The translations under genes were made by a program, and so were the position numbers. Of a stretch of DNA of 64,000 bases, positions 7,514 through 57,569 are shown in pieces. Numbering within the stretch: the stretch's first letter is position 1; every line of letters begins with the position of its first letter. Where the stretch lies: NCBI RefSeq assembly GCF_055900595.2, contig NZ_CM148325.1; one strand, given 5' to 3'. Below the pieces are notes generated by a model, which saw nothing but the letters and a program-made list of their open reading frames with translations, was not told the origin of the DNA and made no database searches.

Positions 7514-7926
7514 TTGCGATTGCCGACATCTTGCAAGCAGGAGAAAAGCTAACTGCTGTGGCACCTTTTCTGGCGGGTATTCAGAACGAGGAACAATACA
7601 CCCAGGCGCTGGAACTGGTAGATCATCTGCTGCTCAACGATCCTGAAAACCCCTTGCTGGATCTGGTGTGTGCCAAAATAACCGCGTGGGAAGAATCAGC
7701 GCCCGAATTTGCTGAATTTAATGCCATGGCTCAAGCCATGCCTGGCGGTATAGCTGTGATTCGTACCCTTATGGATCAATATGGTTTAACCCTTTCCGAT
7801 CTGCCGGAAATTGGCAGTAAATCGATGGTGTCACGCGTTTTGAGCGGGAAGAGGAAATTAACGCTGGAACACGCTAAAAAACTGGCAACGCGATTCGGCA
7901 TTTCTCCCGCCTTGTTTATTGATTAA
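7510..7926 (+). CDS. higA: type II antitoxin HigA (HTH-XRE)
   Basis: 138 aa ORF translationally coupled to higB. Confidence 0.9.
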   Translation: MIAIADILQAGEKLTAVAPFLAGIQNEEQYTQALELVDHLLLNDPENPLLDLVCAKITAWEESAPEFAEFNAMAQAMPGGIAVIRTLMDQYGLTLSDLPEIGSKSMVSRVLSGKRKLTLEHAKKLATRFGISPALFID

Positions 7927-7933
7927 CGCGACG

Positions 7934-7957
7934 TGCCGGATGCGTCACATCCGGCAC
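7934..7957. repeat. single REP-like hairpin (possible bidirectional terminator)
   Basis: GTGCCGGATGCGTCACATCCGGCAC between convergent higA and fadH. Confidence 0.6.
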
Positions 7958-42184: not shown

Positions 42185-43486
42185 ATGGCTCAGGAAATCG
42201 AATTAAAGTTTATTGTTAATCACAGTGCCGTTGAGGCGTTGCGTGACCATCTCAATACGCTGGGCGGCGAGCACCATGACCCCGTGCAGTTGCTGAATAT
42301 TTACTACGAAACGCTGGATAACTGGCTGCGTGGGCACGACATGGGCTTACGTATCCGTGGCGAAAACGGTCGCTATGAGATGACCATGAAAGTTGCAGGA
42401 AGAGTGACAGGCGGCTTACACCAGCGCCCGGAATATAACGTGGCTTTGAGCGAACCGACGCTCGACCTGGCGCAGTTACCGACGGAAGTCTGGCCGAACG
42501 GCGAATTGCCTGCCGATCTCGCTTCCCGCGTACAACCGCTGTTCAGCACCGATTTTTATCGCGAAAAGTGGCTGGTAGAGGTCGATGGTAGCCAAATTGA
42601 AATCGCTCTCGACCAGGGGGAAGTGAAAGCGGGGGAATTTGCTGAGCCTATCTGCGAGCTTGAACTGGAACTGCTTAGCGGCGACACGCGCGCCGTGCTG
42701 AAACTGGCGAACCAACTGGTATCGCAAACCGGATTACGTCAGGGCAGCCTGAGCAAAGCCGCGCGCGGCTATCATCTGGCGCAGGGCAATCCCGCGCGTG
42801 AAATCAAACCGACCACCATTTTGCATGTTGCGGCAAAAGCCGATGTGGAACAGGGGCTGGAAGCGGCGCTCGAGCTGGCGTTAGCGCAATGGCAGTATCA
42901 TGAAGAACTGTGGGTCCGCGGCAACGATGCGGCGAAAGAGCAAGTGCTGGCTGCCATTGGCCTGGTCCGTCATACGCTGATGCTGTTCGGTGGCATTGTG
43001 CCGCGTAAAGCGAGCACTCACTTACGTGACCTGCTGACTCAATGCGAAGCGACCATCGCATCTGCGGTGTCTGCCGTAACGGCGGTCTACTCTACCGAAA
43101 CGGCGATGGCGAAGCTGGCGTTGACCGAATGGCTGGTAAGCAAAGCCTGGCAGCCGTTTTTAGATGCCAAAGCGCAGGGCAAAATCAGCGATTCTTTCAA
43201 ACGCTTTGCCGATATCCATCTTTCCCGCCATGCCGCTGAACTGAAAAGCGTTTTCTGCCAGCCATTAGGCGATCGCTACCGTGACCAATTGCCGCGCCTG
43301 ACGCGTGACATTGACTCAATATTGTTGCTGGCGGGTTACTACGATCCTCTCGTCGCGCAAGCCTGGCTGGAGAACTGGCAGGGACTGCGTCATGCCATTG
43401 CGACCGGGCAACGCATTGAAATTGAACATTTCCGTAATGAGGCAAACAATCAGGAACCGTTCTGGTTGCACAGCGGAAAACGTTAA
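42185..43486 (+). CDS. ygiF: inorganic triphosphatase YgiF (CYTH plus CHAD)
   Basis: 433 aa, N-terminal CYTH EIELKF motif; GGAGG RBS. Confidence 0.9.
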
Positions 43487-43508
43487 TCAGGCAAGGATAA
43501 AATCGCTT

Positions 43509-46349
43509 ATGAAGCCGCTCTCTTCACCGTTACAGCAGTACTGGCAGACCGTTGTTGAGCGGCTGCCAGCGCCTTTAGCCGAGGAATCACTTAGCGCACA
43601 GGCGAAGTCAGTACTTACCTTCAGTGATTTTGTGCAGGACAGCGTAATTGCGCATCCAGAGTGGCTGACGGAACTGGAAAGCCAGCCGCCGCAGGCCGAC
43701 GAATGGCAGCATTACGGTGCATGGTTGCAGAAGGCGCTCAGTGATGTAAGCGACGAAGCAGGGTTAATGCGTGAGCTGCGTCTGTTCCGGCGGCGCATTA
43801 TGGTGCGCATTGCCTGGGCGCAAACGCTGGCACTGGTTACTGAAGAGAGCATATTGCAGCAGCTCAGCCATCTGGCGGAGACATTGATTGTCGCCGCGCG
43901 TGACTGGCTGTATGAGGCCTGCTGCCGCGAGTGGGGTACGCCCTGCAATGCGCAGGGTGAAGCGCAACCGCTGCTGATTTTAGGCATGGGTAAACTGGGC
44001 GGCGGGGAGCTGAATTTTTCCTCAGATATCGATCTGATTTTTGTCTGGCCGGAACATGGTTGCACGCAGGGCGGACGCAGGGAACTGGATAACGCTCAGT
44101 TCTTTACCCGCATGGGTCAGCGGCTGATTAAAGTGCTGGATCAACCAACGCAGGATGGTTTTGTTTATCGCGTGGATATGCGACTGCGTCCGTTTGGCGA
44201 AAGTGGCCCGCTGGTGCTGAGCTTTGCGGCACTGGAAGACTATTACCAGGAGCAGGGGCGCGACTGGGAGCGTTACGCGATGGTCAAGGCGCGGATTATG
44301 GGGGATAGCGAAGGCGTCTATGCTAACGAGTTGCGTGCGATGCTGCGCCCGTTTGTTTTCCGCCGTTACATCGATTTCAGCGTCATCCAGTCGCTGCGCA
44401 ACATGAAAGGGATGATTGCCCGTGAAGTACGTCGTCGTGGTTTGACCGATAACATCAAACTTGGCGCGGGTGGCATTCGCGAAATTGAATTTATCGTCCA
44501 GGTATTCCAGCTCATTCGCGGCGGGCGCGAACCGTCGCTGCAATCGCGCTCTTTACTGCCAACGCTCAGCGCCATTGCCGCGCTGCATCTGCTTTCTGAA
44601 AACGATGCCGAACAATTGCGAGTGGCGTATCTCTTCCTGCGGCGTCTGGAAAACCTGCTGCAAAGCATTAACGACGAACAAACTCAGACGCTTCCTTCGG
44701 ATGAGCTTAACCGTGCGCGGCTGGCATGGGCAATGGATTTCGCGGACTGGCCGCAACTAACCGGGGCGCTGACCGGACATATGACCAATGTGCGCCGGGT
44801 GTTTAACGAATTGATTGGCGATGACGAAAGCGAAACACAGGAAGAGTCGCTATCGGAACAGTGGCGTGAGTTGTGGCAGGATGCGTTGCAGGAAGATGAC
44901 ACTACGCCAGTACTGGCGCATCTTAGCGAAGATGATCGCAAACAGGTGCTAACACTGATTGCCGATTTCCGCAAAGAGCTGGATAAGCGCACAATCGGGC
45001 CGCGAGGACGTCAGGTGCTCGACCATCTGATGCCGCATCTGCTAAGTGATGTCTGTGCGCGTGAAGACGCTGCTGTCACGCTGTCGCGCATTACGGCTTT
45101 GCTGGTGGGGATTGTTACCCGCACTACCTATCTTGAGCTGCTTAGTGAATTCCCCGCAGCGCTTAAGCATTTGATTTCGCTGTGCGCCGCATCGCCGATG
45201 ATTGCCAGCCAACTGGCGCGTTATCCATTATTGCTGGACGAACTGCTCGATCCGAACACTCTTTACCAGCCGACGGCGACGGATGCCTACCGTGATGAAC
45301 TGCGCCAGTATTTGCTGCGCGTGCCGGAAGATGACGAAGAACAACAGCTTGAGGCGCTGCGTCAGTTCAAACAGGCGCAACTGTTACGTATTGCGGCAGC
45401 GGATATCGCCGGTACGCTACCGGTAATGAAAGTGAGCGATCACTTAACCTGGCTGGCGGAAGCTATGATAGATGCCGTCGTTCAGCAGGCGTGGGTTCAA
45501 ATGGTTGCCCGCTACGGTAAACCGAATCACCTGAACGAACGCGAAGGGCGTGGTTTTGCGGTGGTCGGCTACGGCAAGCTGGGCGGCTGGGAGTTAGGCT
45601 ACAGTTCCGATCTTGACCTGATCTTCCTCCATGATTGCCCAATGGATGCGATGACTGACGGCGAGCGGGAAATCGACGGGCGACAGTTTTATCTGCGTCT
45701 GGCGCAACGCATTATGCACCTGTTCAGCACGCGAACTTCTTCCGGTATTTTGTACGAAGTGGATGCACGGCTGCGTCCGTCCGGGGCGGCGGGAATGCTG
45801 GTTACCTCTGCAGAAGCGTTTGCCGATTATCAGAAAAACGAGGCCTGGACGTGGGAGCATCAGGCGCTGGTGCGTGCGCGTGTAGTGTACGGCGATCCGC
45901 AGCTCACCGCGCACTTTGACGCGGTGCGTCGCGAGATTATGACGCTGCCGCGTGAAGGTAAAACTCTGCAAACGGAAGTGCGGGAAATGCGCGAGAAAAT
46001 GCGCGCGCATCTCGGCAATAAACATCGCGATCGCTTTGATATCAAAGCCGATGAAGGCGGAATTACCGATATCGAATTTATTACCCAATATCTGGTGTTG
46101 CGCTACGCTCATGAAAAACCGAAGTTAACGCGCTGGTCAGACAACGTGCGTATTCTGGAGCTGCTGGCGCAAAACGACATTATGGAAGAGCAGGAAGCGA
46201 TGGCGCTGACCCGTGCTTACACGACGCTGCGCGATGAACTTCATCATCTGGCATTACAGGAATTGCCGGGTCATGTGCCGGAAGATTGCTTTACCGCAGA
46301 GCGTGAACTGGTGCGGGCAAGCTGGCAGAAGTGGCTGGTGGAAGAATGA
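43509..46349 (+). CDS. glnE: glutamine synthetase adenylyltransferase/adenylyl-removing enzyme GlnE
   Basis: start at ATG for [12 protein letters not shown] (946 aa); two nucleotidyltransferase domains; ORF track extension upstream overlaps ygiF. Confidence 0.93.
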
Positions 46350-46396
46350 AGTATGGTATTATCGCGCGCAAATTTTGAATCTCTCAGGAGACAGGA

Positions 46397-47830
46397 ATGA
46401 AAGTAACGCTGCCAGAGTTTGAACGTGCAGGAGTGATGGTGGTTGGTGATGTGATGCTGGATCGTTACTGGTACGGTCCCACCAGCCGTATCTCGCCGGA
46501 AGCGCCGGTGCCCGTGGTTAAAGTGAATACCATCGAAGAACGTCCGGGCGGCGCGGCTAACGTGGCGATGAATATCGCTTCTCTCGGTGCTAATGCACGC
46601 CTGGTCGGGTTGACGGGCATTGACGATGCGGCGCGCGCGCTGAGTAAATCTCTGGCCGACGTCAACGTCAAATGCGACTTCGTTTCTGTACCGACGCATC
46701 CGACCATCACCAAATTACGGGTACTTTCCCGCAACCAACAGCTGATCCGTCTGGATTTTGAAGAAGGTTTCGAAGGGGTTGATCCGCAGCCGCTGCACGA
46801 GCGGATTAATCAGGCGCTGAGTTCGATTGGCGCGCTGGTGCTCTCTGACTACGCGAAAGGTGCGCTGGCAAGCGTGCAGCAGATGATCCAACTGGCGCGT
46901 AAAGCGGGCGTTCCGGTGCTGATTGATCCAAAAGGCACCGATTTTGAGCGCTACCGCGGCGCTACGCTGTTAACGCCGAATCTCTCGGAATTTGAAGCTG
47001 TTGTCGGTAAATGTAAGACCGAAGAAGAGATTGTTGAGCGCGGCATGAAACTGATTGCCGATTACGAACTCTCGGCTCTGTTGGTGACCCGTTCCGAACA
47101 AGGGATGTCGCTGCTGCAACCGGGTAAAGAGCCGCTGCATATGCCAACCCAGGCGCAAGAAGTGTATGACGTCACCGGTGCGGGCGATACGGTGATTGGT
47201 GTGCTGGCAGCAACGCTGGCGGCGGGTAATTCGCTGGAAGAAGCCTGCTTCTTTGCCAACGCGGCGGCCGGTGTGGTGGTTGGCAAACTGGGAACATCCA
47301 CGGTTTCGCCGATCGAGCTGGAAAATGCAGTACGTGGACGTGCAGATACCGGCTTTGGTGTGATGACCGAAGAGGAACTGAAGCTTGCTGTAGCGGCGGC
47401 GCGTAAACGCGGTGAAAAAGTGGTGATGACCAATGGCGTCTTCGACATCCTGCACGCCGGGCACGTCTCCTATCTGGCAAATGCCCGCAAACTGGGTGAC
47501 CGCCTGATTGTCGCTGTGAACAGCGATGCCTCCACCAAACGGCTGAAAGGGGATTCCCGCCCCGTTAACCCTCTCGAACAGCGTATGATTGTGCTGGGGG
47601 CACTGGAAGCGGTCGACTGGGTGGTGTCGTTTGAAGAAGACACGCCGCAGCGCTTGATCGCCGGGATCTTGCCAGACCTGCTGGTGAAAGGCGGCGACTA
47701 TAAACCAGAAGAGATTGCCGGGAGTAAAGAAGTCTGGGCCAACGGTGGCGAAGTGTTGGTGCTCAACTTTGAAGACGGTTGCTCAACGACCAACATCATC
47801 AAGAAGATCCAACAGGATAAAAAAGGCTAA
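46397..47830 (+). CDS. hldE: bifunctional heptose 7-phosphate kinase / heptose 1-phosphate adenylyltransferase HldE
   Basis: 477 aa, N-terminal ribokinase-like and C-terminal cytidylyltransferase domains. Confidence 0.93.
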
Positions 47831-47909
47831 CCGGAAAGCGGTTCACAGATCTCGCTTCGAACCAGGCAGGCCTATTGACGCTGTTGTTTTTTCAACCTAA
47901 AGTAAAGGA

Positions 47910-48060
47910 ACAAGGGTAAGGGAGGATTTCTCCCCCCTCTGAATTGGTTGTTAATAAGCCTGGAAACTTACTAGTAACAACACAATCAGTATGATGACGA
48001 ACTTCATCATAACCCTTTCCTTCTATAAGGCCCCTTCTTCGGGAGGGGCTTTCCCGTTTC
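47910..48060 (+). ncRNA. sibE: Sib antisense sRNA, copy proximal to hldE (likely sibE)
   Basis: plus-strand TTGACG-N17-TAAAGT promoter at 47875-47903; plus-strand terminator CCCCUUC-UUCG-GGAGGGG at 48031-48048 then U-rich tract; fully antisense to the ibs ORF; ends inferred. Confidence 0.6.
47951..48010 (-). CDS. ibsE: Ibs-family hydrophobic toxin peptide (19 aa, MMKFVIILIVLLLVSFQAY)
   Basis: minus-strand ATGATG start preceded by GGAAAGGG RBS, TAA stop; sequence fits the Ibs pattern. Confidence 0.75.
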   Translation of the reverse strand: MMKFVIILIVLLLVSFQAY

Positions 48061-48202
48061 AGCCCCTTGCTGACTCCCCGATTGTTGATGAGCGCCAGAC
48101 CCCGCGCAATGCTTTCCCAGAGGCAGTTTTGCCTTCCCCGAGCAGTCACGCAAAACGCTGCAACAGCCTGATCATTTGCAGTTTTTTGTGGAACACAGAT
48201 AT

Positions 48203-48231
48203 AAAAAATCCCCGGTTTTTTGGGCCAGGGA
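48203..48231 (-). terminator. intrinsic terminator copy within repeat 1 (minus strand)
   Basis: minus-strand UCCCUGG-CCCAAAAAA-CCGGGGA followed by UUUUUUAU; the G-U pair makes the stem complete only on the minus strand. Confidence 0.55.
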
Positions 48232-48286
48232 TATGTGTTAATGAAACCTTCTTGACGCTGATTTTTTTTCAACCTAAAGTAAAGGA

Positions 48287-48436
48287 ACAAGGGTAAGGGA
48301 GGATTTCTCCCCCCTCTGAATGGCCGTTAATAAGCGTGGAAACTTATCAGTAACAGCACAATCAGTATGATGACGAACTTCATCATAACCCTTTCCTTAT
48401 GTAAGGCCCCTTCCTCGGGAGGGGCTTTCCCGTTTC
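48287..48436 (+). ncRNA. sibD: Sib antisense sRNA, copy proximal to yqiK (likely sibD)
   Basis: TTGACG-N17-TAAAGT at 48252-48280; terminator hairpin at 48405-48426; antisense to second ibs ORF. Confidence 0.6.
48327..48386 (-). CDS. ibsD: Ibs-family hydrophobic toxin peptide (19 aa, MMKFVIILIVLLLISFHAY)
   Basis: second copy of the 19-codon ORF with the same RBS context. Confidence 0.75.
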   Translation of the reverse strand: MMKFVIILIVLLLISFHAY

Positions 48437-48576
48437 AGCCCCTTGCTGACTCCCCGATTGTTGATGAGCGCCAGACCCCGCGCAATGCTTTCTCTTATGC
48501 AGTTTTCTCTTCCCCGAGTTGGCTCGCAAAACGCTGTAACAACCTGATCATTTGTACTTTTTAGCGGAACGCAGAT

Positions 48577-48607
48577 ATAAAAAATCCCCGGCTTTTTGGG
48601 CCAGGGA
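48577..48607 (-). terminator. intrinsic terminator downstream of yqiK
   Basis: minus-strand UCCCUGG-CCCAAAAAG-CCGGGGA followed by U6, about 20 bp after the yqiK stop. Confidence 0.6.
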
Positions 48608-48624
48608 TGTTCATAGTTGAAAAT

Positions 48625-50301
48625 TTATTCTATGTTTTCTGCGACGGGAGTTGTTGAGGTTAAGGGTGAAGTCAATGCCGCCAGTGAGCCGCCTGAAACG
48701 CCAATTTCATTGAGCAAGGAGTCAATCAGCGGTGCCTGTGTGCGGTAAGAAAGGGCGGCAGACAATGCCTGTTCTGCCAGGTTTCCGCCACTAACGCTGC
48801 CTGATGCCGCATCCCCCGCAGCACCACCTCGGTTTAATCCATCGACCTGAATAATCTTGATGCCGTCAATGGACTTCATCGGCTCAACGGATTTCTCTAT
48901 TACTGCAGGTAACGACTGTAATAGCGCCAGTTTGAATTTAAGGCTGGTTTGCTCGTCAGAAAGTACGTTGATAGCGTCGTTCAGCGCACGTTGCGCTTCT
49001 GCTTCCGCCAGGCCTTTTTTGCGTGTTGCTTCGGCTAACTCAACGATCGCCGCCGCCTGCATCTCTGCGGCTTCTTTCTCTGCGGCTTCTTTCTCTGCTT
49101 TCGCCCGCACGGTCAGTTCAACCGCTTTGGTTTCTGCATCCTGCGCGGCAGCGATTAGGGCAACTTGTTTAGCACGATCGGCTTCTGCGGTCTGGCGAGT
49201 GGTTTCTACGTTTTGCTGGGCGCTTACCGCTTCTGCAAGTGCAAGGTTGGCACGCGCTTCCGCTTGTGACTGCTGTTCCGATTTGGCGGCAATAGCGATC
49301 GATTTCGTCTGGTTGGCGATTTCGGTGACCTGCTGCTGTTCGATCTCTTTAATGCGAACTTCACGTTCAGCTTCAACTTTTCTGGAACGGACGACCTGTT
49401 CGCGGTCGATTTCCGTTTCCTGAATCTGTCGTTCAGCCAGAATTCGCGTCTGCTCTGCTTCCCGACGACGCTCGGCCTCAAAAGCCGCAATTTTCGCATT
49501 CTGCTCAGCGGTACGGGTTTTAACCTGCTGCTCCTGCTCAAGCGTCATAAACGCTTCTTGCTGTTCAATCTCCAGCTTCCGCGAAAGCGCATCACGGTTT
49601 TTCTCACGCACCGCAACTTCTACATCCTGTTCAACTTCGTTACGTTCGCGACGACGGCGCTCCGTCTCCTGCGTCAGCTTGGTTAAACCTTCGGCGTCAA
49701 AGGCGTTGTTAGGATTGAAATGTTCCTTCGACGTCTGGTTAAAGTTGGTAAGTGAAACGCTTTCCAGTTCCAGGCCGTTTTTCGACAGATCTTCAGCAAC
49801 GGTATTTTGTACGCCCTGCACGAAGTTCTCGCGGGTATCCTGTAACTCATGCATGGTCATTTGTGCAGCTGTTGCACGGAGGGCATCGACAAATTTATCT
49901 TCAACCAACATACGTAAGTCTTCAGGCGACAGGGTGCGTTGCCCCAGCGTCTGGGCGGCGGTGGCAATACCTTCCACTGACGGTTTTACCCGCACAAAGA
50001 AAGCGACAACGACATCGACGCGCATACGATCTTTCGTAATCAGGCTATCAATGGTTGAGCGGCTGACTTCCAGCTTCAGAGTATTCATATTGATGGGGAT
50101 TATTTCATGAAAGATCGGCATCACGATTGCGCCACCGCTCATTACCACTTTTTGCCCACCTAAACCAGTACGAACAAAAGCTTGCTCTGCCGAAGCGCGA
50201 CGATAGAGCCTGGCGAAAATAATTCCAATAATAAACAGAATGCATACGGCAATAATTGCGGTAAACATCCAGGAGGGCACAGAATTAACAATATCATCCA
50301 T
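48625..50301 (-). CDS. yqiK: SPFH/band-7 (flotillin-like) inner membrane protein YqiK
   Basis: 558 aa, N-terminal TM, SPFH domain, long E/A/R/Q-rich coiled coil. Confidence 0.9.
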   Translation of the reverse strand: MDDIVNSVPSWMFTAIIAVCILFIIGIIFARLYRRASAEQAFVRTGLGGQKVVMSGGAIVMPIFHEIIPINMNTLKLEVSRSTIDSLITKDRMRVDVVVAFFVRVKPSVEGIATAAQTLGQRTLSPEDLRMLVEDKFVDALRATAAQMTMHELQDTRENFVQGVQNTVAEDLSKNGLELESVSLTNFNQTSKEHFNPNNAFDAEGLTKLTQETERRRRERNEVEQDVEVAVREKNRDALSRKLEIEQQEAFMTLEQEQQVKTRTAEQNAKIAAFEAERRREAEQTRILAERQIQETEIDREQVVRSRKVEAEREVRIKEIEQQQVTEIANQTKSIAIAAKSEQQSQAEARANLALAEAVSAQQNVETTRQTAEADRAKQVALIAAAQDAETKAVELTVRAKAEKEAAEKEAAEMQAAAIVELAEATRKKGLAEAEAQRALNDAINVLSDEQTSLKFKLALLQSLPAVIEKSVEPMKSIDGIKIIQVDGLNRGGAAGDAASGSVSGGNLAEQALSAALSYRTQAPLIDSLLNEIGVSGGSLAALTSPLTSTTPVAENIE

Positions 50302-50327
50302 TATTAAATTTCCTTTTGATTAATAAA

Positions 50328-50957
50328 TTACAGTATTTGGGGCCAGGGTTTTTTTTTCGCCAAATATCGCGTTGCAGAAAGTCGGCAAATAATTAATACT
50401 TTGTCTCCTTTAGTGAAAGTTTTTTCTTCTTCAGGTTCCAGTAGTAAATAATGTATTTGGCCAAATTGATCGGTGAGTTTTCCTTCACAGGGGTTACCTG
50501 AAGTGGCCTGATGTCCGGTAATTAATGCCATGCAGCCAATATATTCTTCTTCTGTAATAGCTGAACTATGGTCGCGTGGAATCCAGGGCGCAACTATTTT
50601 ACCGGTATAATGCACCGCAATAATCGTTAGCAGTAAACTGACAGGAACCACAAACAGATTTGTGAGTGGTGATTGCCAGACCATGATGCAGACCTGCTGT
50701 AGCAGGATGCCAATAAGGCCAAAAAAACCAGCATGTAAGCAGAGAACGACGAGAGCTGGCAATCTTCCAAAATTGAGATAATGAAGTGCCTGGCTAATAT
50801 GACCTGTGGTTATGGAATCATAATGGTCAAGATGTGCATCAAGAGCACCGGAAAGCATGTGACCGCAGATAAGTGCAAAAATTTCTAAAAGGCCGATCAA
50901 AAGTACAAAAGAAATAGCGAAAAGATAAGGGGTGTTATAGTCAGCGAATAAAATCAT
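50328..50957 (-). CDS. yqiJ: NfeD-like membrane protein YqiJ
   Basis: 209 aa multi-TM ORF immediately upstream of yqiK (NfeD-SPFH operon arrangement). Confidence 0.88.
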
Positions 50958-51226
50958 ATGTCACTCCAATGTCCATTTAGTGACGCAATATTTATTTTGC
51001 GATAATTTCCTTGCTTACATTTATCTTTGTTAATAATAACACATGTTAGCGATGTTCTGAAAGAGAAAGTCTTTTAATGTTGTTTTTTTATTTTTCACTA
51101 AAAAGTGTGATCGGGAACAATATATTTACGCACGTTATGTTTAAAGGCACTACACTGATTGGGGAATACTGAAATCAGAAAAAGCATATGGCCTTAAAAG
51201 GTATGCGATAACCGGAGGATGTGCTT

Positions 51227-51427
51227 ATGGATCATAGTCTTAATTCTTTAAATAACTTCGATTTCCTGGCGCGTAGTTTTGCCAGAATGCACGCAGAAGG
51301 TCGCCCGGTCGATATTCTGGCCGTTACTGGTAACATGGATGAAGAACATAGAACCTGGTTTTGCGCACGTTATGCCTGGTATTGCCAACAGATGATGCAA
51401 ACCAGAGAACTGGAATTAGAACATTGA
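51227..51427 (+). CDS. glgS: surface composition / glycogen synthesis regulator GlgS
   Basis: ATG at 51227 after GGAGG RBS, 66 aa [18 protein letters not shown]...; ORF track starts two codons earlier at GTG. Confidence 0.9.
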
Positions 51428-51431
51428 TATT

Positions 51432-51453
51432 ACGGGCCGTCTGGCCCGTTTTT
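51432..51453. terminator. hairpin terminator between convergent glgS and ubiK
   Basis: ACGGGCC-GTCT-GGCCCGT followed by TTTT on plus. Confidence 0.55.
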
Positions 51454-51461
51454 GTGGTGCT

Positions 51462-51761
51462 TTATTCTGCTTTATCAACCGGCGGGATAGCTGGAGGAGA
51501 TTGAAGTTCTGCTACCGGATTATTGCGCGCTTCCAGTTCGCTGATGCGTTGTTCCAGTAACGCCAGTTTTTCACGAGTCCGTAACAGGACTTGCGTCTGA
51601 ACGTCGAATTCTTCGCGGCTTACCAGATCGAGACGCGTCAACTGCGCTTGTAGGGTTTGGCGGATTTTTTTCTCCACATCTTCCCCGAACTCCCTGATTC
51701 CTTTAGGCATTGATTCGTGAACCTGGCGAGCGATTTGCTCAATTTTTTTCGGGTCAATCAT
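51462..51761 (-). CDS. ubiK: ubiquinone biosynthesis accessory factor UbiK (YqiC)
   Basis: start at ATG for [19 protein letters not shown] (99 aa) after AGGGA RBS; coiled-coil BMFP-like. Confidence 0.85.
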
Positions 51762-51882
51762 TGTAGTTTCCCTGTACTGATAGGTGTTGAGTGCCATTGT
51801 AGTGCGATAAGGGTAAGTCATAAACCAGAATTATGTGAAGCTATGCGTTGCTGCCGCTAATCATTAGCGTTATAGTGAATCC

Positions 51883-52134
51883 GCTTATTCTCAGGGCGGG
51901 GCGAAATTCCCCACCGGCGGTAAATCAACTCAGTTGAAAGCCCGCGAGCGCTTTGGGTGCGAACTCAAAGGACAGCAGATCCGGTGTAATTCCGGGGCCG
52001 ACGGTTAGAGTCCGGATGGGAGAGAGTAACGATTCTGTCGGGCATGGACCCGCTCACGTTATTTTGGCTATATGCCGCCACTCCTAAGACTGCCCTGATT
52101 CTGGTAACCATAATTTTAGTGAGGTTTTTTTACC
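51883..52134 (+). promoter_or_regulatory. sroG: FMN riboswitch (RFN element) and expression platform in the ribB leader
   Basis: CAGGGCGGGGCGAAATTCCCCACCGGCGGTAAA...CCGACGGTTAGAGTCCGGATGGGAGAGAGTAACG matches conserved RFN aptamer blocks directly upstream of ribB. Confidence 0.85.
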
Positions 52135-52788
52135 ATGAATCAGACGCTACTTTCCTCTTTTGGTACGCCTTTCGAACGTGTTGAAAATGCACTGGCTGCG
52201 CTGCGTGAAGGACGCGGTGTAATGGTGCTTGATGATGAAGACCGTGAAAACGAAGGCGATATGATCTTCCCGGCAGAAACCATGACCGTTGAGCAGATGG
52301 CGCTGACCATTCGCCACGGTAGCGGTATTGTTTGCCTGTGCATTACTGAAGATCGCCGTAAACAACTCGATCTGCCAATGATGGTAGAAAATAACACCAG
52401 CGCCTATGGCACCGGTTTTACCGTGACCATTGAAGCGGCTGAAGGTGTGACTACCGGTGTTTCTGCCGCTGACCGTATTACTACCGTTCGCGCAGCGATT
52501 GCCGATGGCGCAAAACCTTCTGATCTGAATCGTCCTGGCCACGTTTTCCCACTGCGCGCGCAGGCGGGTGGTGTGCTGACGCGTGGCGGCCATACTGAAG
52601 CGACTATTGATCTGATGACGCTGGCAGGCTTTAAACCGGCTGGTGTGCTGTGTGAGCTGACTAATGACGATGGCACGATGGCGCGTGCACCAGAGTGCAT
52701 TGAGTTTGCCAATAAACACAATATGGCGCTCGTGACTATTGAAGACCTGGTGGCATACCGTCAGGCACATGAGCGTAAAGCTAGCTGA
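52135..52788 (+). CDS. ribB: 3,4-dihydroxy-2-butanone 4-phosphate synthase RibB
   Basis: 217 aa, DRENEGD motif. Confidence 0.95.
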
Positions 52789-52826
52789 AAACCGCTGCTT
52801 AATTTACCGCGTTAATCAATAAATAT

Positions 52827-52850
52827 CCTCCGGCATAGCCGGAGGTTTTT
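52827..52850 (+). terminator. ribB intrinsic terminator
   Basis: CCTCCGGC-ATA-GCCGGAGG followed by TTTTT. Confidence 0.7.
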
Positions 52851-52868
52851 CAAATGCGCCTGTAAGGC

Positions 52869-53575
52869 TCTGTTACCAGCCGCGCCCTAACAGGCGCATA
52901 CGATCTGACATTTGCATTCAACTTCGTTACTTACGGCCCGTAAACGGGCTGCCCGGATATGGAATCGATAACTGCTCCCCCATTTTATCCTCTTCAAGCT
53001 GGTGCTTTATGTAGTCCTGTATCTTCGCCGTGTTCTTACCCACCGTATCGACATAGTACCCTCGGCACCAGAACTCCCTGTTTCTGTATTTGAATTTCAA
53101 ATCCCCAAACTGCTCGTAAAGCATCAGACTGCTTTTCCCTTTCAGATATCCCATAAAGCCGGATACGCTCATTTTGGGTGGGATTTCCACAAGCATATGG
53201 ATATGATCTGCGCAGCACTCTGCTTCCAGAATCCGTACGCTTTTCCACTCACACAGCTTTCTCAAAATACTGCCTATCGCCCTACGCTTCTCTCCGTAAA
53301 ACGCCAGTCTTCGGTATTTCGGCGCAAAAACTATGTGATATTTACAGTTCCAGCGGGTGTGCGCTAAGCTCTTTTCGTCCCCCATTGGGACCCCCTTTTG
53401 ATTTCTTGTTTGACACTTGCAGTTGCCAGACCGCAAGGTGTTTTAACAAATCAAAAGGGGTTTTAATAACTGGCTCAAAGCTGAAAGCTTTCCGGAACCC
53501 CCAGCCTAGCTGGGGGTTTTCTGTGCACAAGAAACCGAAGCTATTACTGGCTTCGGTTTTTATTTTGCTCTTGTT
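52869..53575. mobile_element. IS200 copy (about 0.7 kb)
   Basis: 152 aa IS200-type TnpA plus characteristic structured left end: terminator hairpin AAACCGAAGC...GCTTCGGTTT (53532-53559), hairpin AACCCCCAGC...GCTGGGGGTT, and a long stem pairing with the RBS; boundaries estimated from the expected ~707 bp size. Confidence 0.75.
52927..53385 (-). CDS. tnpA: IS200 transposase TnpA (Y1 HuH)
   Basis: start at ATG for MGDEKSLAHTRWNCKYHIVFAPKYRR; HIHMLVEIPP HuH motif; 152 aa. Confidence 0.9.
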   Translation of the reverse strand: MGDEKSLAHTRWNCKYHIVFAPKYRRLAFYGEKRRAIGSILRKLCEWKSVRILEAECCADHIHMLVEIPPKMSVSGFMGYLKGKSSLMLYEQFGDLKFKYRNREFWCRGYYVDTVGKNTAKIQDYIKHQLEEDKMGEQLSIPYPGSPFTGRK

Positions 53576-53761
53576 ATGCAAGATGTTAATTCCTCTTCTC
53601 TTTCTATGAGAAAATTTCATTAATATCAGGCATTCTTTTCCATTATGATCAAAATCATATAATTGTTCCGTTATTATGCGACCATATGAATATATCCGAA
53701 AAAGGATATGTGAATTTTATGCGCTAAATGTTTAGTATTGTTAAATATTAAGGGTAAAAGG

Positions 53762-53932
53762 ATGTTTATCGCCTGGTACTGGATTGTATTGATTGCTCTG
53801 GTTGTGGTGGGTTATTTACTGCATTTGAAACGTTATTGTCGGGCGTTTCGTCAGGACAGAGACGCACTGCTTGAAGCGCGGAATAAATACTTAAACAGTA
53901 CGAGAGAAGAGACAGCCGAGAAGGTAGAATAG
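53762..53932 (+). CDS. small (56 aa) single-TM protein, unassigned
   Basis: ATG at 53762 after AAGGG RBS; MFIAWYWIVLIALVVVGYLLHL TM helix then charged tail; terminator hairpin downstream. Confidence 0.5.
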   Translation: MFIAWYWIVLIALVVVGYLLHLKRYCRAFRQDRDALLEARNKYLNSTREETAEKVE

Positions 53933-53949
53933 GGCTTTAGTGAAGCTGG

Positions 53950-53980
53950 CAGAAGTTGTCCATGCGCTGGACAACTTCTG
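53950..53980. terminator. bidirectional hairpin terminator (small ORF / zupT)
   Basis: CAGAAGTTGTCC-ATGCGCTG-GGACAACTTCTG perfect 12 bp stem. Confidence 0.6.
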
Positions 53981-53989
53981 ATGTTGCTT

Positions 53990-54763
53990 TTAACCAATTC
54001 CCGCCGTTTGTAGTAGCACTAAACTGAATCCCATCACTGACATTCCACATAGCACGCCATAGCTGGGGTTATTATTGGGGTCAATCTCTTTAGCTAGCGG
54101 CATTAATTCATCAACCGAGAGCGCCACCATAATTCCTGCAACCGCCGCCATGATTGCCGCCATGACCACCGGAGAAATCATGCTACCGAGGATTAACCAC
54201 GCCAGAACACCACCAAGAATTTCTGCCAGCCCAGAAATGCCCGCCCACAAAATTGCGGTGCGTTTTGACCCCGTTGCCGCGTAAACCGGCCCCGCAACTG
54301 CCAGACCTTCAGGAATATTATGCAATGCAACAGCCAGCGCGATGCCAAAGCCCAGCTCCAGGTTACTGCTCGCCGTGACAAAGGTGGCAATGCCTTCCGG
54401 GAAGTTATGCAGACTGATGCCGAGAGTGAGCAGAATGGCTGTGCGCTTGATCGATTTTGGCAACGGCTGCACCGATTTTTGCATTAAATCCTGCGGATGC
54501 GCATGTGGCAACATGCGGTCCAGACCAAAATAGCCAAGCAGACCGAAGATAAACATTCCATAACCCAGCACAGGCGACATTCCTTCGGCGGCTAATGCGG
54601 CAGGAAGCATTTCCATTAATGAGATGAGCAACATAATCCCCGCCGCAAATCCTAGCGAAAACGCCAGTAAGCGGTTCGAGGGTTTTTGTCCGAGAACGCC
54701 GAGAAACGCGCCAATAAACGTGGCTGCCCCCGCCAGTATGGTCAGAATGAGAGGTACTGACAT
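53990..54763 (-). CDS. zupT: ZIP-family zinc transporter ZupT
   Basis: start at ATG for [20 protein letters not shown] (257 aa) after GGAG RBS. Confidence 0.92.
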
Positions 54764-54905
54764 CGACAACTCCTTATAAATCTTTACCTTCAGGCAGATC
54801 GTCAAAATAACTGATGATCATCATCATTGTTATCCGGGTTCTTACTCCGCCGAACAAGCGTATTGTGAGGATATCAAAATGACACCTTTAGTTAAGGATA
54901 TCATC

Positions 54906-55694
54906 ATGTCTTCAACACGTATGCCAGCATTGTTTTTAGGTCACGGTAGTCCGATGAACGTGCTGGAAGATAATTTGTATACCCGCAGCTGGCAGAAGTT
55001 GGGGATGACATTGCCACGCCCGCAAGCGATTGTTGTGGTTTCGGCTCACTGGTTTACCCGTGGAACTGGAGTGACCGCGATGGAGACGCCGCCCACGATT
55101 CATGATTTTGGCGGTTTTCCGCAGGCGCTGTACGACACCCATTATCCTGCTCCGGGTTCGCCTGCGCTGGCACAGCGTCTGGTTGAGCTGTTAGCGCCGG
55201 TCCCTGTGACGCTGGATAAAGAAGCCTGGGGCTTTGACCACGGTTCCTGGGGCGTGCTGATTAAGATGTATCCTGACGCCGATATCCCGATGGTGCAGTT
55301 GAGTATCGACAGTACCAAACCTGCCGCCTGGCACTTTGAGATGGGGCGTAAACTGGCGGCTCTGCGAGACGAAGGAATAATGTTGGTCGCCAGCGGTAAC
55401 GTGGTGCATAACCTGCGTACGGTGAAGTGGCACGGTGATAGTTCACCGTATCCTTGGGCGATGTCGTTTAATGAGTATGTGAAAGCGAATCTGACGTGGC
55501 AAGGACCGGTAGAACAGCATCCTCTGGTGAATTATCTCGACCATGAAGGTGGCGCGTTATCGAACCCAACGCCAGAGCACTATCTGCCGTTGTTGTATGT
55601 CTTAGGTGCGTGGGATGGGCAGGAGCCAATTACCATTCCGGTCGATGGTATAGAAATGGGCAGTTTAAGTATGTTGTCGGTGCAGATAGGCTAA
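54906..55694 (+). CDS. ygiD: extradiol ring-cleavage dioxygenase class III (4,5-DOPA dioxygenase-like) YgiD
   Basis: ATG at 54906 after AAGGA RBS (262 aa); an in-frame ATG at 54879 would give 271 aa. Confidence 0.85.
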   Translation: MSSTRMPALFLGHGSPMNVLEDNLYTRSWQKLGMTLPRPQAIVVVSAHWFTRGTGVTAMETPPTIHDFGGFPQALYDTHYPAPGSPALAQRLVELLAPVPVTLDKEAWGFDHGSWGVLIKMYPDADIPMVQLSIDSTKPAAWHFEMGRKLAALRDEGIMLVASGNVVHNLRTVKWHGDSSPYPWAMSFNEYVKANLTWQGPVEQHPLVNYLDHEGGALSNPTPEHYLPLLYVLGAWDGQEPITIPVDGIEMGSLSMLSVQIG

Positions 55695-55698
55695 TAAT

Positions 55699-55724
55699 TA
55701 CCGGATGGCGAGTGCCATCCGGTA
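55699..55724. terminator. bidirectional hairpin terminator (ygiD / ygiC)
   Basis: ACCGGATGGC-GAGT-GCCATCCGGT perfect 10 bp stem. Confidence 0.6.
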
Positions 55725-55731
55725 TCATGGC

Positions 55732-56892
55732 TTATTCAACAAAAATATGTGGATAAAACCGAGACATATCCTGGGTGATCAATGCACGGTCTTCACGAAT
55801 GCCAATTCCGGCAGGTTGATCGTTCACCAGCCAGCTACCAATCAGCATATAGCTATCGCCGAATTTTGGTAACGGGTGGAATTGCTGAACAATCATCCCT
55901 TCTTCGCCATACGGACCTTCTGCTGCTTCAATGGTTTTGCCGTTCTCAATGATCGACACGTTTGCGCCTTCACGGGAGAAGATCGGTTTAACCACATATT
56001 TTTCCATTTGCGGATGATCATCTTCCGCAAAATAAGCGGGCAGCAGGTTCGGGTGATTCGGGAACATCTCCCACAGTAGCGGCAGAAGCGCTTTGTTGGA
56101 GATAATGCTCTTCCACGCCGGTTCCAGCCAGCGTACGCCTGCATCCTCCAGCTTGGTGGAGAACATCTCACGCAGCATAAATTCCCACGGATACAGCTTG
56201 AACAGGTTAGAAATCACCTGATCCTGTAAATCCGTGAACTGACCTTTTTCGCCTAAACCGATATCGTCGATGTAGAGGAATTCAGTAGCGATTTCAGCTT
56301 CTGTCGCGCAGTCCTGCAAATACTGAATGGTTCCGCGATCTTCCACCGTGTCGCGACAGCAGGTGAGATGCAGCAACTGGAAGCCATACTGTTCACGCAG
56401 CTGGACAAAGCGATCGATCAGCTTCTCTTGCAGACTGTTAAACTGGTCGCTGCCTTCCGGCAGGTTACCGGCGTTAAGCTGATCTTCCAGCCAGATCCAC
56501 TGAAAGAATGCGGCTTCATACAGTGACGTTGGCGTATCGGCGTTATTTTCCAGAAGTTTAGGTTCGCCAGTACCATCCCACGCCAGATCAAGACGCGAAT
56601 AAAGCGATGGCTGGTGAGTCAGCCATGACTGGCGCACAAAACTCCAGGTGTGTTTTGGAATGCGGAATTTGGTCATCAGCTCATCGCTGGCGATCACTTT
56701 TTCAACCACTTTCAGGCACATCTGGTGCAGTTCGGCGGTGACTTCTTCCAGCTTTTCAACCTGGGAGAGGGTCAACTTGTAGTAAGCATCTTCACACCAG
56801 TATGGCTCTCCGTACATGGTGTGAAAATTGAAACCGTATTCGTGGGCTTTTTCGCGCCAGTCCGGACGCTCGGTAATACTGACTCTTTCCAT
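55732..56892 (-). CDS. ygiC: glutathionylspermidine synthase-like ATP-grasp protein YgiC
   Basis: 386 aa. Confidence 0.9.
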
Positions 56893-56897
56893 CGGTA

Positions 56898-57569
56898 TCA
56901 GCCACCCATTGAACGAGAAGAGGTGCCAGTTGCGCTACGCTGCATGGTGCTTTGTTTGGCAACAGATTCACCAAAGCCACCGCGGGTAACGGTAGTGGTG
57001 GTCGCCGGTTTCGGTGCCATGGCTGTCTTCGGTACGGTCATGGTGCGGCCTGGCTGCGCTGCGCCATAGTTTTTACCGGTGGCATCAGTATATTTACCGT
57101 AAGCCGGGCTGGCTGGGTTTTTCGAGGAGAACAGCGGCTGTTGTGCAAAGCCCGCGCCGCCGCCCATCAGACGCCCCATCATGTAACCGGCCATCAGCGG
57201 CATCCAGAAACTCCCGCTGGATTGCTGGGCCTGCGCCTGGTTTTCTGGTGCCATACCAGCCTGGGCTGGTGCCTGCTGGCACTGGCCTTCGCCAAATTCA
57301 GCAATACAGTCTTCACGAGTGGCGTATTTCGGCGCAGTACGTTCGGCTTCTTTCAGCGCATTGTTGTACGCAGTGGTACATTCTGCGCTTTTGCCTGGGT
57401 TTGCGGCTGAGCAGTCATCAGCATTTTGATACAGAGACACTGTCTCATCACTCTTTTCACAGCCTGCCAGCATAAAAACAGTGGCAACAGCAAGAGCGAC
57501 AGGTGTCAGATGGCGTGCGCTCCAGTTTTTGCGGAACGATGCGTGGCGTATGGATTTTGTCCGTTTCAT
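56898..57569 (-). CDS. ygiB: DUF1190 lipoprotein YgiB
   Basis: start at ATG for [12 protein letters not shown] (223 aa); lipobox LAGC. Confidence 0.86.

Follow-up and report, generated by a model that had tools for sequence, protein, structure and literature searches.

The chromosomal yqiJ-yqiK operon of a divergent Escherichia coli lineage and its adjacent Sib/Ibs toxin-antitoxin repeats

Organisation of the yqiJ-yqiK locus

The window examined here, a 64,000-nt stretch of contig NZ_CM148325.1 (RefSeq assembly GCF_055900595.2), carries the two-gene operon yqiJ-yqiK next to a pair of Sib/Ibs toxin-antitoxin repeats. Both genes lie on the minus strand, separated by 26 nt: yqiJ (50328..50957) is an open reading frame (ORF) of 209 amino acids (aa) with the Pfam domains YqiJ_N and YqiJ_OB, and yqiK (48625..50301) an ORF of 558 aa with the Pfam domains Band_7 and Flot. 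Their products are orthologues of E. coli K-12 YqiJ (b3050; 94% protein identity) and YqiK (b3051; 97% protein identity), and order, spacing and neighbours (hldE, ibs/sib, glgS) are shared with K-12. The complete gene order in this part of the window is glnE, hldE, two Sib/Ibs units, yqiK, yqiJ, glgS, ubiK, a flavin mononucleotide (FMN) riboswitch with ribB, an IS200-type element, yqiD and zupT. By megablast, the region 47800-51100 was matched in 5,425 of 5,426 complete E. coli genomes and near full length in 5,342 of them, where the annotations read yqiK (flotillin family), yqiJ (oligonucleotide/oligosaccharide-binding (OB) fold), one or two Ibs toxins and hldE; at the DNA level, the locus is ~92-94% identical to that of most E. 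coli. It is the known yqiJ-yqiK operon, located in the chromosome of an E. coli lineage that is somewhat divergent. Its genes, domains, operon pairing and neighbouring Sib/Ibs repeats are already annotated and published for K-12 and Salmonella and, as a known operon in a known place, it carries little weight as a discovery. Taken jointly, the observations are very probably best explained by this known operon encoding a scaffold pair of SPFH/NfeD type, with the adjacency of ibs/sib a matter of inherited gene order.

The pairing of the two genes is constant in the comparison set described below: a yqiJ homologue lies directly upstream of yqiK in all 35 fetched loci holding a full yqiK, and also in the 36th (L039), which ends inside yqiK. 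Upstream of yqiJ, a consensus scan identified a sigma-70-like promoter (51033..51061, minus strand; TTCAGA-17-TATTAT with an upstream TG), which is a candidate only, as such sites are no more numerous in the region than expected from shuffled sequence.

Sib/Ibs units and a duplicated hairpin

The spacer between hldE and yqiK holds two tandem units in the window, as do sibD/ibsD and sibE/ibsE in K-12. The Rfam model SIB_RNA (RF00113; gathering score 56) matches the plus strand at 47875-48025 (142.9 bits) and at 48252-48401 (147.4 bits), defining Sib RNA copy 1 (47875..48056) and copy 2 (48252..48432). By homology to K-12 sibD the transcript of the first would span ~47905-48056, and that of the second ~48282-48432. 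Antisense to each, on the minus strand, translation gives an intact 19-aa ibs toxin ORF (MMKFVIILIVLLLVSFQAY, 47951..48010; MMKFVIILIVLLLISFHAY, 48327..48386), annotated as an Ibs toxin in the identical genome NZ_CM128600.1. With a Sib RNA above the Rfam cut-off and an antisense hydrophobic ORF of ~19 aa, both repeats are type I toxin-antitoxin units of the Sib/Ibs class.

The block tandemly duplicated in Escherichia (~376 bp) is longer than Sib and ibs themselves, beginning at the Sib promoter and extending to ~5 nt short of the yqiK stop codon. Unit 1 (47875..48251; 377 bp) comprises, in plus-strand order, the Sib promoter, the Sib RNA with antisense ibs, the ibs upstream region and a hairpin copy; unit 2 (48252..48620) has the same layout and ends beside yqiK. 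Identity between the direct repeats is 97% for 47875-47944/48252-48321 and 89% for 47945-48244/48321-48620. Read on the minus strand, in the direction of yqiK, each block runs from a hairpin terminator through the ibs promoter and leader to ibs/sib. The hairpin between the yqiK stop and the unit 2 ibs promoter region (48574..48608, minus strand) resembles an intrinsic terminator with its T-run: ATCCCTGGCCCAAAAAGCCGGGGAT (48608..48584, minus strand), 17 nt past the stop, is followed by TTTTTT and folds with -17.5 kcal/mol (z -3.8). Repeat comparison placed its copy, also with a T-run, at the end of unit 1 (48198..48232, minus strand), where the hairpin (48232..48208) carries one change in its loop-closing pair and folds more weakly (-11.6 kcal/mol, z -1.65). 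Through duplication of the block, the yqiK-proximal terminator is thus present twice. Another hairpin-like repeat, inside yqiJ (50333-50357; 76% over 25 nt), was treated as chance.

The extended repeat of ~376 bp, hairpin included, is present in K-12 sibD/sibE too. Window units are 90-93% identical to the K-12 sibD/sibE units and 89-97% identical to each other, and differ by sequence variants only. In the K-12 sibA, sibB and sibC units, homology starts at the Sib promoter and is lost ~20 nt beyond the Sib terminator, so that the yqiK hairpin is not included. Copy number at the hldE-yqiK site is polymorphic in E. coli (1-2), because 9 of the 29 full-length matches sampled at even spacing carry a single unit, these being 376 bp shorter with one Ibs gene annotated.

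Two further observations concern the units. Each ibs start is preceded, at a distance of ~120 nt, by the motif TTTTGCG(T/A)G (within 48060-48200 and 48437-48575, minus strand), which is kept in all five K-12 units and in units from Citrobacter, Phytobacter, Kluyvera and Klebsiella; it may be the -35 region of the ibs promoter. In Klebsiella spallanzanii (L031), one full Sib is accompanied by a ~60-nt match (7883-7942, minus strand; 41 bits) between yqiK and the full copy, which looks like a truncated second Sib copy.

Co-occurrence of yqiJK and ibs/sib

A YqiK scan of a GTDB set with one genome per species gave 36 loci, all of which were searched with a covariance model built from seven Sib sequences, flanking genes being placed by tblastn. 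Thirty-four were informative (20 syntenic and 14 non-syntenic with respect to the window), the two others being too truncated to score. Where the ancestral order ribB-ubiK-yqiJK-hldE-glnE is retained, Sib lies downstream of yqiK in 12 of the 20 loci and is absent from eight; where yqiJK lies elsewhere in the genome, it was found downstream of yqiK in 0/14. Sib-containing loci come from Escherichia species, one Citrobacter youngae genome, Citrobacter sp. FP75, Kluyvera, two Phytobacter species, an Enterobacteriaceae genome, Klebsiella spallanzanii and Kosakonia. The Sib-less syntenic loci belong to the other C. youngae genome, C. werkmanii, three other Citrobacter, Phytobacter massiliensis, Entomohabitans and Intestinirhabdus, and relocated yqiJK to Pseudocitrobacter, Hafnia, Serratia, Erwinia, Buttiauxella, Paraburkholderia, Cupriavidus and two Alphaproteobacteria. 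With the Rfam model, the negatives were confirmed for all 14 non-syntenic loci and for 7/8 Sib-less syntenic ones.

Other copies of either partner are likewise unpaired. Three of the five K-12 copies lie where there is no SPFH or NfeD gene (sibA/B between yegL and mdtA, sibC between fau and serA), and the second SPFH/NfeD operon of E. coli, qmcA-ybbJ, has no Sib neighbour in K-12. Salmonella carries a single ibs/sib in the yqiK-rfaE spacer (10.1101/2025.05.26.656083). Because Sib accompanies yqiK at 12 of the 20 syntenic loci and at none of the non-syntenic ones, and because the other sib copies and qmcA-ybbJ stand alone, the adjacency is attributed to synteny only. As judged from gene order, ibs/sib next to yqiJK is an inherited arrangement (yqiK - ibs/sib - hldE) common to many Enterobacteriaceae, and no functional module was detected, co-occurrence not persisting without conserved gene order. 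The original prediction, made from the sequence of the window, had noted no evidence of a functional link to the toxins and proposed this co-occurrence analysis, naming a lack of co-occurrence beyond shared synteny as the outcome that would speak against such a link; this is the outcome obtained, and it settles the question of the toxin neighbourhood in favour of inherited gene order rather than a functional module.

Functional coupling could take the form of an SPFH/NfeD assembly that buffers or sequesters the membrane-depolarising Ibs peptides, or of leaky read-through from yqiK that couples ibs to yqiJK transcription. In its favour, yqiK and ibs lie on the same strand with the hairpin alone between them, an arrangement retained by Escherichia and Salmonella and by certain species of Citrobacter, Kluyvera, Phytobacter, Klebsiella and Kosakonia. 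Both partners can also be tied to membrane stress, since IbsC overproduction is reported to induce pspABCDE (review PMC8309996) and a pspA-like gene lies upstream of three distant yqiJK operons. However, the eight syntenic loci keep yqiJK without Sib, the two C. youngae genomes differing in this respect, relocated yqiJK loci have no Sib at all, the majority of K-12 Sib/Ibs copies occupy sites free of SPFH and NfeD genes, and the hairpin is a strong terminator-like structure that favours insulation. Coupling is therefore considered very unlikely; the induction of psp by IbsC is the only thread tying yqiJK and ibs to a common theme, and the distribution data give a dedicated link no support.

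The occurrence of yqiJK at unrelated sites in Pseudocitrobacter, Hafnia, Serratia, Erwinia, Buttiauxella, Burkholderiales and Alphaproteobacteria would also fit an anti-phage or mobile defence module, the toxin-antitoxin repeats forming part of a small defence islet. This is the least probable of the readings weighed here, and it was rejected because neither YqiK nor YqiJ was matched in PADLOC-DB at E <= 0.01. The neighbours of relocated yqiJK are not conserved and show no sign of defence genes among them, those in the window are core housekeeping genes (hldE, glnE, glgS, ubiK, ribB), and yqiK is under very strong purifying, not diversifying, selection.

The yqiK-ibs hairpin across genera

The same hairpin is present in every sib-containing locus of other genera, 12-40 nt past the yqiK stop, the one in Kosakonia being without a T-run. 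In each of the eight syntenic loci that lack Sib, the hairpins past yqiK are unrelated to it, mostly resembling repetitive extragenic palindromes (REP; GCCGGATG...CATCCGGC), in spacers of 50-250 nt. Since across genera it is present only where ibs/sib is present, the hairpin behaves as part of the ibs/sib block, and the comparison indicates that gain, loss and duplication affect the hairpin, the ibs upstream region and ibs/sib together. The claim that the terminator of yqiK had been duplicated into the toxin repeat is correct as to the copy in unit 1; calling it yqiK's own gives half the picture, as the hairpin tracks ibs/sib across genera.

The hairpin would end yqiK transcripts and shield the downstream ibs from read-through; a terminator upstream of the ibs promoter would stop toxin mRNA that escapes control by Sib. 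In the case of sibC, it is the terminator of serA that stands at the corresponding place upstream of ibsC. Transcriptional insulation is the sole relation between yqiJK and ibs that the sequence supports, and it is a presumed one. Alternatively, the hairpin could be the ancestral terminator of yqiK itself, with the second copy a passive by-product of duplication that has no role for ibs. The proximity of the block end to the yqiK stop, the lack of the hairpin in K-12 sibA/B/C, where homology among the five units ceases shortly after the Sib terminator, and the decay of the unit 1 copy to a weaker fold in the window strain all agree with this. It is opposed by the cross-genus distribution, in which the hairpin goes with ibs/sib and 8/8 Sib-less syntenic loci have unrelated, mostly REP-like hairpins in its place, and by the serA terminator at sibC, which fits a recurring need for insulation. 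Replacement of the whole spacer on loss of sib would explain the joint presence of hairpin and sib equally well, and for this reason sequence cannot assign the hairpin to yqiK or to the ibs/sib block; a purely passive terminator nevertheless seems the less likely of the two, at perhaps a minority chance.

In a more elaborate version of coupling, the conserved yqiK-ibs hairpin would be a regulated, leaky insulator: under membrane stress, yqiJK transcription would read through into ibs and Sib would be out-titrated, after which Ibs would lower proton flux and ATP while the YqiJK scaffold, linked to PspA in distant relatives, protects the membrane. If so, yqiJK-ibs/sib would act as one stress-response unit wherever Enterobacteriaceae have retained both, an idea considered very improbable.

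Domain structure of YqiK

YqiK is a flotillin-like protein of the SPFH family, with a membrane anchor, an SPFH domain, a long helix and a Flot C-terminal domain. In Pfam, Band_7 (PF01145) covers residues 39-190 (68.1 bits against a gathering score of 23.6; E 1.3e-18) and Flot (PF15975) residues 411-535 (136.2 bits against 27; E 7.9e-40), the latter with the full profile covered. The N-terminal hydrophobic stretch (residues 4-36; Kyte-Doolittle values up to 2.98) is the predicted membrane anchor. E, A, R and Q make up 55% of residues 201-470, P and G together 1%, and residues 224-423 form a single helix of ~200 residues in the AlphaFold model. These features bear out the original prediction of a flotillin-like SPFH protein with a long coiled coil rich in E, A, R and Q.

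The model was built from a 15-sequence alignment and has a predicted local distance difference test score (pLDDT) of 56, so that its fold matches were used as weak support only; fold comparison was relied on for YqiK and YqiJ because PDB sequence searches were uninformative. The top four PDB matches found with Foldseek are flotillin-1/2 chains (9BQ2, 9L3G; E 2e-7 to 8e-6), at template modelling (TM) scores of 0.15-0.23 from this low-pLDDT model, and further matches are to prohibitin, stomatin, HflK/C and erlin. An SPFH domain, a long helical wall and a Flot C-terminus are common to YqiK, the eukaryotic flotillin-1/2 complex and bacterial FloT. However, the flotillin chains align with YqiK over 400-447 columns at only 18-20% identity, and YqiK would assemble only with itself, unlike the hetero-oligomeric flotillin-1/2. 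Assignment of YqiK as a FloT equivalog (NCBIfam NF058507) was rejected (88.3 bits against a cut-off of 700).

Alignment with K-12 revealed a perfect 15-nt tandem duplication inside yqiK (GCAGAGAAAGAAGCC twice; 49069..49098, minus strand), which lengthens the coiled coil by AEKEA close to where Flot begins (558 aa against 553 aa in K-12); the final tail residues differ as well. This insertion is found in none of the 14 other YqiK sequences aligned and, being five residues and no multiple of a heptad or hendecad, it would shift the helix register unless the site is a bend. Insertions of another kind occur in YqiK of Cupriavidus (L021; IEQQKVTQMAA) and Serratia (L028; IEQSKVTEMAA), at alignment columns 322-332: these 11 residues are a tandem copy of the following IEQxKVTEIAE segment, a coiled-coil repeat of hendecad length.

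Domain structure of YqiJ

YqiJ matches the Pfam families YqiJ_N (E 7.8e-16) and YqiJ_OB (E 6.1e-15), the only ones reported; Pfam NfeD (PF01957) gave no match at E <= 0.01. NCBIfam has no YqiJ family, and a PDB sequence search returned a chance-level match only. In the AlphaFold2 model (pLDDT 78), three hydrophobic helices (residues 6-43, 65-94 and 100-125), predicted to be transmembrane, precede a barrel at ~143-202 (pLDDT ~78-91). The best PDB fold matches of this C-terminal barrel are NfeD C-terminal domains, 3WWV (E 5e-4; TM-score 0.71 on the target) and 2K14. Like YqiJ, the NfeD proteins concerned (Pyrococcus horikoshii PH1510, C-terminal domain 3WWV; Bacillus subtilis YuaF, 2K14) have a membrane N-terminus, a C-terminal OB-fold barrel and an SPFH neighbour. 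Differences from them are an identity of only 11-18% over the aligned barrel, the lack of a ClpP-like protease domain and Pfam families of its own. The predicted NfeD-like partner is thus upheld by modelled fold and by context, not by sequence family. Membership of the long NfeD/STOPP protease class was rejected, as a ClpP-like serine protease domain was not matched in YqiJ (209 aa) and Pfam reported no protease domain in it.

PspA neighbours and the proposed role of YqiJK

Around relocated yqiJK, no conserved third gene was found beyond the shared yqiJ and yqiK, save a pspA-like gene in 3/14 loci. In these, a PspA_IM30 gene lies directly upstream of yqiJ and in the same orientation: in Cupriavidus sp. 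BIS7 (L021, 4478-5203), in an alphaproteobacterial metagenome-assembled genome (MAG; L033, 4572-5315) and in a Reyranella MAG (L040, 4617-5309). PspA has been linked to SPFH proteins through B. subtilis pspA-ydjGHI (PMC8581546), and a genome-neighbourhood survey described PspA-Band 7/FloT-NfeD neighbourhoods in Acidobacteriota (PMC9239133). The B. subtilis operon combines a PspA gene, a membrane partner and the SPFH protein YdjI, and the three distant yqiJK loci have the same layout. Unlike pspA-ydjGHI, the window has no adjoining pspA, with glgS and ubiK on the yqiJ side and ibs/sib and hldE on the yqiK side; moreover, YdjI is soluble and binds the membrane via YdjG/H, whereas YqiK has its own hydrophobic N-terminus.

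By analogy with flotillin, HflK/C, stomatin and prohibitin, YqiK would form a large homo-oligomeric cage that sits on the inner membrane from the cytoplasmic side and encloses a membrane patch. YqiJ, its integral-membrane partner with three transmembrane helices and a cytoplasmic OB-fold barrel, would dock on or inside this assembly. The likely role of yqiJ-yqiK is membrane organisation or membrane-stress protection, not catalysis. In K-12, plasmid-expressed YqiK is reported to form punctate foci (10.1101/2022.07.25.501378).

Several points weigh against the combined picture of a scaffold pair in an inherited neighbourhood. The YqiK model is of low confidence and its flotillin match is a local similarity with very low TM-scores, and PDB searches with the YqiK sequence, or with a profile of 15 sequences, gave no match. 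The co-occurrence set, 36 loci from one genome per species, is small, and detection by peptide pattern favours close relatives. In the K-12 study cited above (10.1101/2022.07.25.501378), native YqiK fused to green fluorescent protein (GFP) was undetectable and deletion of yqiK had no growth, biofilm or stress phenotype; owing to these two results, the physiological role of YqiK stays inferred.

Conservation and divergence

Comparison with K-12, other Escherichia and E. albertii gave ratios of nonsynonymous to synonymous substitution rates (dN/dS) of 0.01-0.03 for yqiK and 0.06-0.14 for yqiJ. YqiK is 73-80% identical between all major clades sampled, in gamma- and beta-proteobacteria including Burkholderiales, with ~330 invariant columns, the coiled coil included; for YqiJ the corresponding identities are only 30-48%. 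The flat YqiK identity does not prove recent horizontal transfer, the YqiJ values fitting an old divergence in which the few free positions of YqiK are saturated. Such conservation is paradoxical, given a very low native level and the lack of a reported K-12 deletion phenotype, and suggests that YqiK has an important function under conditions so far untried. The pspA-like gene upstream of some distant yqiJK operons makes membrane stress a lead in the search for such conditions.

The region 42185-57247 was compared with K-12, to which the flanking core genes have ~95-96% DNA identity (dS 0.10-0.30). A hypervariable yqiJK locus, as the 92-93% DNA identity to most E. coli might suggest, was rejected in view of these flanks; because the flanking genes are diverged too, the whole region appears to come from a divergent lineage, with yqiJK only moderately more diverged than its flanks at synonymous sites. 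The dS of yqiJK is 0.92-1.17 against E. albertii and 0.63 against E. coli L034, about twice that of the flanking genes. Among 5,458 matching records, only eight reach >=99% identity across 47800-51100, the closest being E400634 (human stool, Kenya) at 100%, which indicates an uncommon E. coli lineage.

Variation in the flanking regions

An IS200/IS605-type transposase ORF (52927-53436, minus strand) lies between ribB and yqiD, together with a match to Rfam STnc490 (53395-53518, minus strand; 146 bits). The element (52927-53518) is absent from the same site in K-12 and in the otherwise identical E400634.

In E. coli EC0900, a urine isolate (NZ_CP158187.1; locus L042, 7032-8929), IS903B takes the place of ibs/sib, yqiK, yqiJ, glgS and part of the fimbrial usher gene. 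With yqiJK replaced in this way, the operon is dispensable in at least one clinical strain.

The yqiGHI/ygiL fimbrial genes, located between glgS and ubiK in K-12, are absent from the window, where glgS is directly followed by ubiK (junction 51428-51461), as in E400634 and in the Escherichia loci L005, L006, L022, L034 and L036. The K-12 yqiI-yqiH-yqiG-ygiL cluster at this position carries an IS2 insertion. UbiK of the window (51462-51761) is only 85% identical to K-12 UbiK (dN/dS 0.28), compared with 98-100% for neighbouring proteins, and 96% identical to the E. coli allele of L034; divergent ubiK alleles appear to be linked to the presence or absence of the adjacent fimbrial cluster.

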